Under the pieces are notes generated by a model. It worked only from the letters and a program-made list of their open reading frames with translations. It did not search any database and was not told the origin of the DNA. A stretch of 64,000 nt of DNA. Source: an uncultured Chloroflexia bacterium (GTDB lineage Bacteria > Chloroflexota > Limnocylindria > Limnocylindrales > CSP1-4). The position numbers and the translations under genes are program-made. The DNA is taken from positions 416,001-480,000 of the forward strand of contig CAVVJT010000004.1 in NCBI GenBank assembly GCA_963748625.1, given 5' to 3'. Positions 42,591-64,000 of this stretch are shown here, in pieces. Numbering within the stretch: position 1 is the stretch's first letter; every line of letters starts with the position of its first letter.

Positions 42591-42665
42591 GTTCGCTTCG
42601 GTTCCTTGTCGCAGAGACGATGACGCCGCCCCCGGAGCCGGGGACGGCATCGAACCGAGCGGGCC

Positions 42666-42755
42666 TGCTTCCTACACCGGTACGAGCCGGATCAGGTTCC
42701 GCGGGTCTGTGGCTTTGGGCCACACTCTCAGCGCTCGAAGCGCTCCCCGGAGGCG
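42666..42755 (-). ncRNA. TPP riboswitch
   Basis: The minus strand reads GGGGAGCG...CGCTGAGAG...GACCCGCGGAACCTGATCCGG...TACCGGTGTAGGAAG, matching the THI-box consensus, upstream of a thiamine-related transporter. Confidence 0.95.
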
Positions 42756-42808
42756 GATATGCGGTTGTCCGCGGAGTCTACACCCCGGCAGCGGCCTCGA
42801 CCCTCGCG

Positions 42809-50137: not shown

Positions 50138-52843
<2,706 letters not shown>

Positions 52844-53945: not shown

Positions 53946-54020
53946 TGGCGCGTGGCCTAATGGTATGGCACCTGACTCTGGATCAGGGGGTTCTAGGTTC
54001 AAATCCTAGCGCGCCAGCCA
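53946..54020 (+). tRNA. tRNA-Gln (anticodon CTG)
   Basis: TGGCGCG/CGCGCCA acceptor stem, CCTGA-CTCTGGA-TCAGG anticodon arm, CTAGG-TTCAAAT-CCTAG T arm, G73 plus CCA; TACACT -10 box at 53928. Confidence 0.97.
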
Positions 54021-57492: not shown

Positions 57493-57774
57493 CTACGCCT
57501 GCCGGCGGATCGCGCTCCAGATGACCCAGGCGCCGGCCACGATGCCCCCGATGTTGAGCGCCTGGCCGGCTGGCCCACTGAGCAGCGACGTGTCCGCGCC
57601 CGCCGGCGCCGTCGCCTGCGCGACCAGCAGGAACAGCGACACCAGGAGGATCACGATCCCGGCGACAAGGCGCTGCCAGTCCAGGCGCGCGGGCTTTGGC
57701 TCAGCATCCGCGGCAGGCGCCGGCTTGGACTCGTCCGGCTTCGGCTTGTCGGTCTGCTCATTTCGGTCGGGCAT
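57493..57774 (-). CDS. Small 2-TM membrane protein
   Basis: MPDRNEQ... with two hydrophobic helices; TAGGCT -10 box just upstream. Confidence 0.65.
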   Translation of the reverse strand: MPDRNEQTDKPKPDESKPAPAADAEPKPARLDWQRLVAGIVILLVSLFLLVAQATAPAGADTSLLSGPAGQALNIGGIVAGAWVIWSAIRRQA

Positions 57775-57840
57775 GGCTGCAAGCCTACCCGACACTGGTG
57801 GGCCGGTCGTCCGCGCGCGGTATGATCGGCCGCAGGTCGC

Positions 57841-57912
57841 TGATGCGTGGCTCACGGTGAGCGTCCGGCGCTGAGCCGGAAGGTGCGGGTTCGACTCCCG
57901 GAGCGTCAGCCA
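57841..57912 (+). ncRNA. Degenerate tRNA-Gln(CTG)-like cloverleaf in the glnS leader
   Basis: TGATGCG/AGCGTCA acceptor stem, GCTC-ACGGT-GAGC D arm, TCCGG-CGCTGAG-CCGGA anticodon arm, GCGGG-TTCGACT-CCCGG T arm, G plus CCA; TATGAT -10 box at 57821. Confidence 0.8.
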
Positions 57913-57986
57913 ACTCCCCTGGGAGTGTGGTGCGCCGGTCCGCGAGTCACCTCTCCTCCCCGTGCACGCAGGTCGAAGGAGACGCG

Positions 57987-59672
<1,686 letters not shown>

Positions 59673-62223: not shown

Positions 62224-62294
62224 AAGGCCCTGACGGGCCGGAGCCGCGCAACAGCCGGGCGGCGGGGCGAAGCAGCCAGGCTGTCACGCCCTTG

Positions 62295-64000
62295 CTACCA
62301 GCGCTTGCGGCCCTGGAGGCGCCAGACGGACTGGCGGATGGCGTCGTCGATGCGCGGGCCGCGGCGCTTGAAGCCGAGGTAGCCGGTGACCTCGGCGAGC
62401 AGCTGGTCCTCGGTCTTGGGATGCGGGTCCGACAGCGTCCAGAGGACCACGCGGTCGAGCTCGTAGAGCGAGACCTTGTCGATCGAGTCGGCCTGGTGCA
62501 GGCGGGGGCGCGGGCCGCGGGTGTCCGGCGGAGGCGGCGGGGCCACGGAGCCGGCGCCTCCCCCACCCCGCACGCGGGCGATGGATGCCTCGATGCCGGC
62601 GACGATCTTCGTTCCCTTGCGGGCGAACCCAAGCTCCTTCATGACCTCGGCGACGAGCTCGTCCTGGGTCCGGAGCTGGTGGTCGGACTCCACCCAGCGG
62701 ACGAGGTTGTCGAGCTCCGCCTGCGGCACGTCGTCGATGCCGGCGTGGCGCCCGAGCTTCGGCTTCGGTCCACGCAGGGCGGCCTCTGGGGCGGCGTCGG
62801 GCTGGGCCGGTGCCGGCTGGGCCGGTGCCGGCTGGGCGGGCGCCGGCTCGGCCGGTGCGGGCAACGGGGTCTGGGTCGGCGGGGTATGGGTCGACGGGGC
62901 TGCCGACGCTGCCGCGGTCGCACCCCAGGCCGTCCACGGTGACGGCGGCCCTGCGGGCGCCGGCGGGACGGTCGGGCCAGGGGGATCCGTGGGTTCGGGC
63001 GGATCGGGGGGACCTGCAGCCTGCGCGGCCTCGGCAGCCAGCCGGTCGGCTTCGGCAGTCGCCAGCGCTGCGGCGTCGGCTTCGGCGCCGTGTCGCGGCC
63101 TCGGCTTCGGCCTTCGCCGCGGCCTCGGCCTCGTCAACGGCGGCAACCGCGCGGTCGTACGCGACCTTGAGCCGCAGGATCTCCCCTGCCCGATCGCGGT
63201 ACCAGTCTGCCGACCAGATCCGGTGGAACTGCCAGCCGATCACCTCGAGATGCTGCTGGCGCAGGCGGTCACGCTCGCGGGCCGTCGGGGCGGAGTGGTA
63301 CGTGGGCCCGTCGCACTCGACGGCGAGGACGAACCGGCCTGCCTTGGTCGGATGCTCCAGGGCGATGTCGAGCGCATAGCTCGACGTCCCCACCTGCGGG
63401 ACCGCACGCACGCCCATCGCCCCCAGCGCCGCGAGCACGTCGCGCTCCAGGCCGTTGAGCGGCGGCCGCGGCGGGACCGCGTTCCCCAGGTCCGCGCCAC
63501 CGCTCTCGGCGTAGCGCAGGTAGGCCGCCATCAGGCGCACGCCCTCGGCGCTGGTCCGCGACGGGTCGACGTCCTCGGAGCCGAACGACGAGACCACCGT
63601 GACGCGCCGCTTGGCCCGCGTGATGGCGACGTTGAGCCGGCGCTCGCCGCCCTGCTGGTTCAGTGGCCCGAAGTTCTGGCGCAGCCGCCCGTCGGACGTC
63701 CGCCCGTAGCCGATGGTGAGGATGATCGCGTCCCGTTCGTCGCCCTGGACGCGCTCGAGGTTCTTCACGAAGAAGGGCTCGCGTCCGGTCTCGGCGAAGA
63801 ACGCGTCCAACTCTGGCACCGACGGCCGCCGGAGGCGCAGGGCCTCGTTGATGTGCTCGGCGTGCTGGATGCCCATCGCGATCACGCCCAGGCTCTCGTT
63901 GGGGCGGGTCCGCGCATGCTCGAGCACGAGGTCCACGACCGCCGCGACCTCCTCGGACGAGGAGACCCCATCGGAACCATCAGGTCGCGGCGCCACCCGC
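62295..64000 (-). CDS. C-terminal part of an SF1 (UPF1-like) helicase fused to a Vsr/REase-like nuclease and two small helical domains; frameshift near 63090
   Basis: VKNLERVQGDERD and RRLNVAITRAK helicase motifs; AVECDG..YHS...ERDRLRQ..L...GW..RIWS nuclease motif. The 5' end lies outside the window. Confidence 0.85.

Follow-up and report, generated by a model that had tools for sequence, protein, structure and literature searches.

In the 64,000-nucleotide (nt) stretch of DNA analysed here (the window; positions 416,001 to 480,000 of contig CAVVJT010000004.1, from an uncultured Chloroflexia bacterium of the order Limnocylindrales), the leader of glnS, the gene for glutaminyl-tRNA synthetase (GlnRS), contains a conserved, non-canonical look-alike of tRNA-Gln. 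We hold with high confidence that this element is a diverged paralogue lying in an ancestral tRNA-leader-glnS unit, that a spare canonical copy serves as the decoder, and that selection acts on the cloverleaf. The lineage carrying this leader is widespread in soil and freshwater.

The tRNA-Gln Look-Alike and Its Gene

The features of the locus, and an ordinary tRNA-Gln gene from the same window, are listed below; all lie on the plus strand.

57821–57826, +: -10 box TATGAT, presumed common promoter for the tRNA-like element and glnS (read from the sequence)
57835–57840, +: GGTCGC, short 5' leader directly before the tRNA-like 5' end, presumed pre-tRNA leader
57841–57912, +: diverged tRNA-Gln(CUG)-like cloverleaf, 72 nt, 3' end G73-CCA (ARAGORN, Rfam tRNA, minimum-energy fold, covariation)
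57869–57875, +: anticodon loop CGCUGAG, with C32, G33 (not U33), CUG at 57871–57873, A37 and G38 (Rfam alignment and alignment of relatives)
57909–57931, +: predicted hairpin P1, in which GCCA of the tRNA plus ACUCC pairs with GGAGU-G-UGGU (RNAalifold consensus of 71 leaders)
57927–57936, +: invariant block GUGGUGCGCC, containing the UGGU that pairs with GCCA (leader matches)
57952–57982, +: predicted hairpin P3, anti-Shine-Dalgarno UCUCCU (57952–57957) with the Shine-Dalgarno (SD) sequence AGGAGA (57977–57982) (pair table, 66 leaders)
57987–59672, +: glnS, glutamine--tRNA ligase, 561 amino acids (translation, NCBIfam TIGR00440, E. coli GlnRS match)
53946–54020, +: canonical tRNA-Gln(CUG), decoding paralogue (ARAGORN, Rfam tRNA 67.5 bits)

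A sequence-only reading of the window had placed a 72-nt cloverleaf 14 nt behind a -10 box and 74 nt ahead of glnS, with no terminator in between, and all of this was borne out. The spacers span 57827–57840 and 57913–57986, the latter ending at the ATG at 57987. No terminator-like site was found within 57600–58100, including the interval between the element and glnS, and no second promoter was seen in that interval. A strict sigma-70 scan recognised no full promoter at the element. RNase P would be expected to cut between GGTCGC and the tRNA-like 5' end.

The element is a cloverleaf with stems of 7, 4, 5 and 5 base pairs, a T loop, G18G19, a discriminator and CCA, according to ARAGORN, Rfam and the pair counts of 25 sequences. 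Its minimum-energy fold in isolation is also a cloverleaf, with the anticodon stem lengthened by C32-G38. The Rfam alignment contains the nucleotides that had been read from the sequence, namely U1:A72, G2:C71, G10 and G73-CCA around the CUG anticodon, and the departures that had been pointed out: G33, a pairable C32:G38, a 5-nt D loop and A3:U70. As anticipated, the score against the Rfam tRNA model (RF00005) is low, at 29.2 bits for a gathering score of 29.0. This is the lowest of 49 Rfam tRNA matches in the 4.6-Mb genome, the next lowest reaching 50.8 bits; yet ARAGORN still calls tRNA-Gln(ctg) at 57841–57912. Excerpts of the literature count U33 with the most strongly conserved nucleotides of tRNA and ascribe to it the U-turn of the anticodon (PMC10424219; PMC8522699). 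The element can therefore hardly be a normal decoder, since G33 stands in place of U33 and 32:38 is closed or pairable.

The product of glnS scores 724 bits against NCBIfam TIGR00440 (cut-off 425.8) and matches E. coli GlnRS chains over its full length (E 1.9e-209). Judged by these matches it is an ordinary bacterial GlnRS, and the E. coli identity rules are thus a fair guide. In the passages cited, GlnRS identity resides in the anticodon, the acceptor stem, G73 and the 10-25 pair (PMC9976931; PMC1865053). The positions retained by the element (U1:A72, G2:C71, G10, C34 U35 G36, A37 and G73) do make up most of the E. coli set, as had been claimed. A tRNA-Gln(UUG) gene and GatB are also encoded in the genome. 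The ordinary tRNA-Gln(CUG) gene that the earlier reading had placed upstream is the copy at 53946–54020. It shares its promoter type and the bases at the start of its 3' flank (ACTCCCCT) with the element but lacks the 3' strand of P1.

Distribution and Origin of the tRNA-Gln-glnS Unit

A 170-nt BLAST query comprising the element and the leader matches 44 of the 70 genomes sampled from the window's genus. These matches were pooled with a pattern scan of the whole collection (at least 80 loci); among the matches listed, 76 of 80 scan loci belong to Chloroflexota, mostly 'Candidatus Limnocylindrales', and the pooled loci yield 87 distinct elements, classified with ARAGORN as follows.

51 of 87: canonical 75-nt tRNA-Gln(CUG), loop CUCUGGA or UUCUGGA
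29 of 87: diverged, 72–74 nt, loop CGCUGAG (17) or UGCUGAG (12)
1 of 87: intermediate (L015), 75 nt, loop CGCUGGA (G33 only)
5 of 87: truncated or cut
1 of 87: chance hit in a proteobacterium (L079)

Judging from these loci, the Limnocylindrales usually have a canonical tRNA-Gln(CUG) gene that a conserved leader connects to glnS, and the comparison shows the ancestral unit of the family to be ordered as promoter, canonical tRNA-Gln(CUG), structured leader of about 72 nt and glnS. A complete canonical copy linked to glnS is present in twelve genomes of the genus, and in eight of these it is the only tRNA-Gln(CUG) match. In those genomes this copy must consequently be excised from the transcript and used. 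The glnS gene itself has a patchy distribution. Sampling detected it in 16 of 24 other genus genomes, in none of 16 from the sister family with small genomes, and in 50 of 301 genomes across the Chloroflexota.

The same comparison shows that, within one clade of the genus, decoding falls to a second canonical copy while the glnS-linked copy has acquired G33, a pairable 32:38, A37 in place of G37, a short D loop and A3:U70. The diverged copy occurs in 26 of the 70 genus genomes, always immediately 5' of glnS, and BLAST of those genomes found no additional diverged copy away from that gene. Every diverged element either belongs to a genome of the window's genus or has the same sequence as one that does (26 genomes, plus the intermediate). 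ARAGORN finds a separate canonical tRNA-Gln(CUG) in 25 of the 26, often 1–40 kb upstream on the same strand; the exception (G074) is 80% complete and has a hybrid copy only. Decoding does not need the element, then, as had been surmised from the window. Its deviations are likewise real and not sequencing errors, because the whole clade has G33, a 32:38 that can pair and a short D loop. The mismatches G7-A66 and G.G at the T-stem base, also singled out earlier, are present in the window but are not features of the clade, 7:66 being unpaired in 8 of 25 rows and 47:65, at the T-stem base, in 2 of 25. Canonical copies, the intermediate with G33 only and the frozen diverged form with 32:38 closed make up a graded series.

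In other genera of the family, and in one family of the same class, tRNA-Gln(CUG) genes stand on both sides of glnS (L153, L154, L156, L011), and in three further loci (L152, L158, L164) the only such gene is downstream of glnS with its own -10 box. These arrangements indicate that the redundancy of tRNA-Gln(CUG) copies is old, and that the association of tRNA-Gln with glnS is older and wider than the leader. Upstream of the promoter, flanks differ from species to species. A quick GlnRS tree, which omits 21 elements whose locus holds less than 300 amino acids of glnS and merges one identical protein row, contains a diverged clade of 18 with the intermediate as sister and a second diverged clade of 5 elsewhere, weakly supported. 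One further diverged row (L036) has a long branch, probably through a reading-frame error. State changes on this tree number 3, against 18.9 in shuffles, and a single origin of the diverged form is neither shown nor excluded by it. The promoter type and 3'-flank bases shared with the canonical copy, the old redundancy and the GlnRS tree together mark the window element as a derived form.

Two observations concern single genomes or loci. One genome (G008) has two glnS loci (C13:20636-22311 and C18:84632-86313), each with a diverged element, one of the two genes being broken by a frame shift and TGA stops; the locus may have been duplicated, one copy now decaying, or the bin may combine two strains. 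In a low-GC Chloroflexota family (L176), a tRNA-Gln(CUG) without encoded CCA lies 73 nt 5' of glnS, with a hairpin and T run resembling an intrinsic terminator in between. This may be an independent or much-changed version of the adjacency, possibly an attenuator.

Conservation of the Diverged Cloverleaf

Canonical glnS-linked copies are almost frozen, with 13 distinct sequences in 52 elements and one sequence common to 32. Their mean pairwise identity is 96%, compared with 54% at four-fold sites. The diverged copies comprise 24 distinct sequences in 29 elements. Their mean pairwise identity is 85%, while four-fold sites in the neighbouring glnS give 60% over the same 276 pairs, the four-fold proxy being probably near saturation. 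This difference makes neutral decay unlikely. Length changes among the 24 sequences are small and confined to the D loop and the junction of variable loop and T stem.

Within 25 distinct sequences, the cloverleaf pairs fill 95.6% of cells, compared with 38–44% when the partners are slid. Seven of 22 pairs have changed on both sides (3:70, 12:23, three of five anticodon-stem pairs and two T-stem pairs), and none of 500 shuffles matched the observed percentage paired or covariation score. The invariant positions are U1:A72, G2:C71, G10:C25, the T loop and G73-CCA. Loop positions 33–38 (G-CUG-A-G) are identical in all 24 distinct diverged sequences, which makes the anticodon loop the most tightly kept region, and G33 occurs in 25 of 25 rows. 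The 32:38 pair is C-G in 15 rows, U.G in 9 and something else in 1; 3:70 is A:U in 21 of 25, and 6:67 is unpaired in 4 of 25. The D and variable loops and the stem sequences vary. ARAGORN calls tRNA-Gln in all 29 diverged elements, whereas only 2 of 20 reach E <= 1 with the Rfam tRNA model (29–30 bits), canonical copies at the same loci scoring 62–71 bits.

The flanks are conserved as well. TANNNT lies 13–15 nt before the tRNA-like start in 24 of 27 distinct diverged flanks and 11–13 nt before the tRNA start in 45 of 48 canonical ones, while GGTCGC is invariant in the diverged flanks (27 of 27) and present in 30 of 48 canonical flanks. Taken over the clade, the alignment shows that the element is more than a chance resemblance and that it is conserved by selection on the whole cloverleaf.

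The Leader between the tRNA and glnS

Long leaders measure 65–77 nt from CCA to the start codon, and 71 of them share P1 and P3. P1 is paired in 99.5% of cells and nearly invariant, with a single compensatory change (L068); its GCCA:UGGU part is paired in cis in 70 of 70 distinct leaders, with no variation. ARAGORN called 29 stand-alone canonical copies in 31 stretches fetched, and all 29 lack the 3' strand of P1, so that P1 belongs to the glnS leader and not to general tRNA-Gln maturation. GTGTGGTGC is present in all genus BLAST leader matches examined, a subset of the 44, and was not forced by the query. P3 is paired in 83.5% of cells, and 3 of its 9 pairs have changed on both sides (anchored pair table of 66 leaders). 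The SD is predicted to be paired, with a mean probability of being unpaired of 0.13 in 67 leaders.

Five species have short leaders (L074, L086, L131, L147, L148), with only a few bases between GGUGCGCC and the start codon and with the tRNA 3' end 24–29 nt from the latter. In them the segment between two GCGCC repeats that the long leader contains seems to have been deleted, and P1 itself would cover the likely ribosome-binding site. As a separate observation, seven stand-alone copies (L184, L188, L189, L192, L193, L199, L204) share a 3' flank with TGTGGTGC about 10 nt after CCA, less clearly in L189 and L204 and with TGTGGTAC in its place in L184; the motif recalls the invariant block of the glnS leader.

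Several other interpretations of the leader were tried and set aside. An upstream open reading frame (ORF) or N-terminal extension was suggested by GTG codons in GAGTGTGGTG that are often in frame, but the CCA-to-start distances do not run in steps of three and similarity to GlnRS begins at the annotated start. Use of the UGGUGCG block as a replacement 5' acceptor strand would be feasible by pairing in most sequences, but it fails because the pairing is broken in L055 (3:70 = C:G) and the tRNA's own stem covaries. Pairing of the CUG anticodon with a CAG before the SD is contradicted by the window and several relatives, which have GAAGGAG or GACGGAG. Apart from tRNA, no Rfam family, T-box included, gave a significant match in the leader.

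Proposed Recognition by GlnRS and Rival Explanations

The reading that we favour, at somewhat less than even confidence, is that the element is no longer ribosomal and acts as a tRNA mimic, in which GlnRS would recognise the anticodon loop together with the inner face of the L. The C32-G38 pair together with G33.A37 would pre-form an extended stem with a splayed three-base anticodon, and A3:U70 would impair catalysis to a greater degree than binding. The target of free GlnRS would be either the leader transcript or the RNA cut out of it. Because P1 lies at the acceptor end and P3 sequesters the SD, binding could by way of these hairpins link translation of glnS to the ratio of GlnRS to tRNA-Gln. 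On E. coli GlnRS, tRNA-Gln reportedly has its stem extended by 32.38 and 33.37 pairs. Published excerpts describe the anticodon bases in that complex as unstacked (PMC8522699), and synthetases bind anticodon-arm mimics in their own mRNAs in the case of E. coli ThrRS and yeast AspRS, HisRS and others (PMC9976931; PMC6542539). GlnRS binding and feedback control of glnS by the element are plausible as a hypothesis.

A number of findings weigh against this. Among the matches listed, a canonical tRNA gene already occupies the same place in 51 of 87 unique elements. Since the position is inherited from that gene, linkage to glnS is not independent evidence of regulation. In the window the element ends 74 nt before the start codon and does not overlap the ribosome-binding site, and at this distance direct competition with the ribosome, as at thrS, is not evident. 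A3:U70 departs from the E. coli identity pair G3:C70. The element alone folds no more stably than shuffles (z -0.36), and the minimum-energy fold of the full leader is not a cloverleaf (z +0.44); single-sequence folding was discarded as evidence on these values, being uninformative in GC-rich DNA.

Loss in other lineages also counts against a regulatory role. Three loci (L061, L063, L069) keep a 5'-truncated tRNA before glnS after integration of a mobile element; the remainder starts at the anticodon loop and is preceded by a shared foreign sequence. Locus L107 (7440-7640, minus strand) has a glnS-linked copy without a D arm and with an 8-nt loop, ACGCUGGA, that has G at the place of U33, while the -10 box, T arm, GCCA and P1 are kept; BLAST found no other tRNA-Gln(CUG) in that genome as assembled. 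In another genus of the family (L159, L163), only remnants persist, consisting of the promoter and the first 8–27 nt of the tRNA before a different glnS leader; by its layout, this is a deletion of the tRNA part with the promoter kept. No upstream tRNA precedes glnS in L152, L158 and others. An intact tRNA is hence not indispensable for glnS expression, as sister lineages have lost or truncated it. The sequence-only reading had named absence or decay in related genomes as evidence against itself: the CUG anticodon, G73 and covarying stems are kept within the clade, but other lineages have lost, truncated or deleted the tRNA, so outside the clade that evidence is partly present.

Two rival accounts explain the locus by the RNA's passage through tRNA enzymes. 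The element could be a processing and expression module that lends glnS a strong tRNA promoter, its fold kept for clean RNase P and 3' processing cuts that leave a glnS mRNA starting at the protective P1 hairpin, with GlnRS playing no part. The ancestral tRNA-mRNA co-transcript and the glnS-linked sole tRNA-Gln(CUG) in 8 of 12 canonical genomes fit such a module, as do the highly conserved -10 box, GGTCGC leader, T arm and GCCA and the lack of a terminator or second promoter between element and glnS; RNase P-processed tRNA-mRNA operons are known, for example E. coli tufB. However, RNase P recognition needs the acceptor/T-arm half and is not known to need the D or anticodon arm. The D and anticodon arms are kept with compensatory changes and loop positions 33–38 are frozen in 24 of 24 sequences, so a pure processing signal is insufficient to explain the conservation of the whole cloverleaf and the new loop. 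Moreover, the lineages in which only processing could matter have lost D or anticodon parts (L107, L159, L163), and the fixation and retention of G33, A37 and G38 go unexplained. We regard this account as unlikely. Slightly less likely again is an acceptor RNA, excised and charged with glutamine by GlnRS, that would serve as a poor CAG decoder or as a non-ribosomal glutamine carrier. The invariant encoded G73-CCA, U1:A72, G2:C71, G10 and CUG anticodon, the uniform ARAGORN tRNA-Gln calls and the necessary excision of canonical copies at the same place speak for it. Against it stand G33 and the pairable 32:38, which oppose the ribosomal U-turn (PMC8522699, in the passage cited), A:U at 3:70, the normal copy in 25 of 26 genomes and the lack of a tRNA-dependent transferase as a conserved neighbour where upstream flanks differ between species. 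A search of the genes neighbouring the window locus for a non-ribosomal glutamine carrier gave no such clue.

Three further accounts concern the history or the logic of the leader. Slow decay, in which a redundant glnS-linked tRNA drifts after duplication and its likeness is residual, would accord with the faster evolution relative to canonical copies (24 distinct of 29 against 13 of 52), with broken pairs at 7:66 (8 of 25 rows) and 6:67 (4 of 25) and with outright loss elsewhere. It is disfavoured, and we consider it improbable, given the excess of identity over four-fold sites, compensatory changes in all four stems, a frozen derived anticodon loop and only small length changes among 24 distinct sequences. 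A T-box-like translational switch seems equally improbable. It would have lost Stem I and acquired a tRNA encoded in cis, a domesticated tRNA gene serving as ligand-like domain. GGGAG-UG-UGGU-(GC-rich hairpin)-CUCCU would be laid out as helix A1, UGGN bulge and helix A2; the 3' strands of the GGGAG...CUCCU segment would form the SD sequestrator, UGGU would read the GCCA end of tRNA-Gln, and the diverged, tethered tRNA would be the sensor for GlnRS or for the charging state of the tRNA-Gln pool. A four-strand switch, in which the P1 3' strand GGGAGU pairs with the anti-SD and frees the SD, was rejected as a general model: 87% of cells are pairable, but covariation is not above shuffles. Blocking GCCA and ACUCC leaves the probability of an unpaired SD at 0.13 and strand removal raises it to 0.19 (67 leaders), which also tells against control through these hairpins. 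The switch is retained, at low probability, solely within the T-box-like account, antiterminators being the intrinsically weaker fold.

Escape from an integrase is the most improbable of these accounts. Insertion into the 3' half of tRNA-Gln(CUG) would cut glnS from its promoter, and with a spare copy available, changes in the glnS-linked copy beginning at the anticodon loop would be favoured because they destroy the attachment site. An integrative element does seem to target tRNA-Gln(CUG), to judge from the three loci that keep only the tRNA 3' part after a shared foreign sequence. A full tRNA lies about 10 kb away in genome G082, and hybrid copies with the same foreign 5' part occur in L185 and L191; both observations would suit such an element. 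Escape would explain divergence, but not the later conservation of the new loop and the whole cloverleaf; no integrase gene was found, no search for one having been made, and no attachment site was mapped.

Other Observations in the Window and Genome

The window locus is flanked by ilvA-like and unrelated genes. Elsewhere in the window, a thiamine pyrophosphate (TPP) riboswitch lies at 42651–42759 on the minus strand (62.4 bits, gathering score 54.3). The ORF at 50324–52843 (+) joins a pyridoxal phosphate (PLP) domain of Cys/Met metabolism to an alpha/beta hydrolase fold, and that at 62284–63996 (-) has AAA_12 helicase and REase_MTES_1575 domains; both are candidate fusions. The window's genome (G000) has a tRNA-Sec gene at C7:613672-613769 (-). 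About ten ARAGORN calls of 80–98 nt with odd anticodons fall outside the 49 Rfam tRNA matches, such as tRNA-Asp(atc) at C10:733199-733289 and another at C7:292765-292846; these are probably false positives in GC-rich DNA.

Comparison with Known Systems

Two kinds of leader element are known to control synthetase genes in bacteria: anticodon-arm mimics, as in thrS, and T-boxes, which bind tRNA in trans. Like a T-box, the glnS leader sets UGGU (the UGGN motif) to pair with GCCA (the NCCA end) next to a helix, and the 5' strand of its SD-sequestering hairpin could also take part in an alternative helix (GGGAG ... CUCCU), which would recall translational T-boxes. In contrast, it has no Stem I or specifier, its tRNA is encoded in cis with the CCA covalently joined to the leader, and the alternative helix has neither covariation nor thermodynamic support. 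The Rfam T-box model (RF00230) gave no match at E <= 10 in window positions 57700–58050 or in L008 1280-1560, and 5 matches elsewhere in the window's genome. T-box-like leaders in G000, all below the Rfam gathering score, were seen at C10:740024-740346 (-), C6:98322-98416 (+) and C4:205000-205106 (-); two are near-identical, with GGGUGGCACCGCGG (UGGC, so a G73 tRNA) and a terminator, and one is a short form with AGGUGGUACCACG.

The canonical tRNA-Gln-glnS units of relatives fit operons of the tufB type. In the E. coli thrU-tyrU-glyT-thrT-tufB operon, a single transcript carries tRNAs and the message for a translation factor, and tRNA-processing enzymes release the tRNAs. Similarly, where relatives have a canonical copy, a functional tRNA lies directly 5' of glnS, on the same strand and with no terminator. 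The window differs in that its tRNA part is a diverged copy, whereas the tRNAs of tufB-type operons are ordinary decoders. We know of no diverged non-decoding copy or CCA-pairing leader hairpin described in such operons.

At thrS, too, a synthetase leader holds a tRNA look-alike that displays the cognate anticodon, and recognition of the glnS element would similarly follow tRNA identity rules (PMC9976931, in excerpt). As in a thrS-type mimic, the element carries the cognate anticodon arm and the identity nucleotides except G3:C70. It lies on the same strand 5' of its gene, with no terminator-like site in between and a conserved -10 box before it, and may share a transcript with glnS. The thrS leader has two anticodon-arm mimics without acceptor arm or CCA and abuts the ribosome-binding site, whereas the glnS element is a complete G73-CCA cloverleaf from a real tRNA gene, 74 nt from the start, and a putative mimic known from comparative sequence. 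Yeast AspRS, HisRS, GlnRS and other synthetases also bind an anticodon-like element in their own mRNAs, whose translation responds to tRNA levels (PMC6542539; PMC9976931). Those systems are eukaryotic and, in the excerpts cited, use small hairpins inside the mRNA rather than whole CCA-ended cloverleaves.

Two further tRNA-derived RNAs invite comparison. The mascRNA released from MALAT1 is a full cloverleaf excised by tRNA-processing enzymes that interacts with mammalian GlnRS and raises the GlnRS protein level (PMC10424219; PMC9976931). It is mammalian and, as the excerpts describe it, has no conserved anticodon loop and no link to the GlnRS gene. The tRNA-Other of Bacillus cereus is comparable in being a tRNA-derived bacterial element that takes no part in translation; its RNA is part of longer transcripts, and it is linked to a genomic island at a tRNA gene. 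It differs in lying outside a synthetase leader and having another anticodon and another proposed role, and the evidence for it is experimental where that for the glnS element is comparative only (PMC3399842).

A full-text literature search, with supplements and subscription journals outside its scope, found no described bacterial tRNA-Gln-derived element or tRNA-Gln-glnS leader and no complete CCA-ended tRNA-derived cloverleaf in a synthetase leader. If GlnRS binds the element, it would be a natural RNA pre-shaped for a synthetase and not for the ribosome, and a bacterial counterpart to the mammalian link between mascRNA and GlnRS; if control runs through GlnRS, it would represent a previously undescribed mode of synthetase regulation. 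Should there be no binding by GlnRS, the leader, with its CCA-pairing hairpin and its SD-hiding hairpin, is an unstudied coupling of a synthetase to its tRNA. In either case, the graded series and the parallel losses show the stepwise turning of a tRNA gene into a non-decoding RNA element. Compared with the systems above, tRNA mimicry in synthetase leaders is known; what is unusual here is a whole, CCA-ended and recently domesticated tRNA gene with living intermediates.

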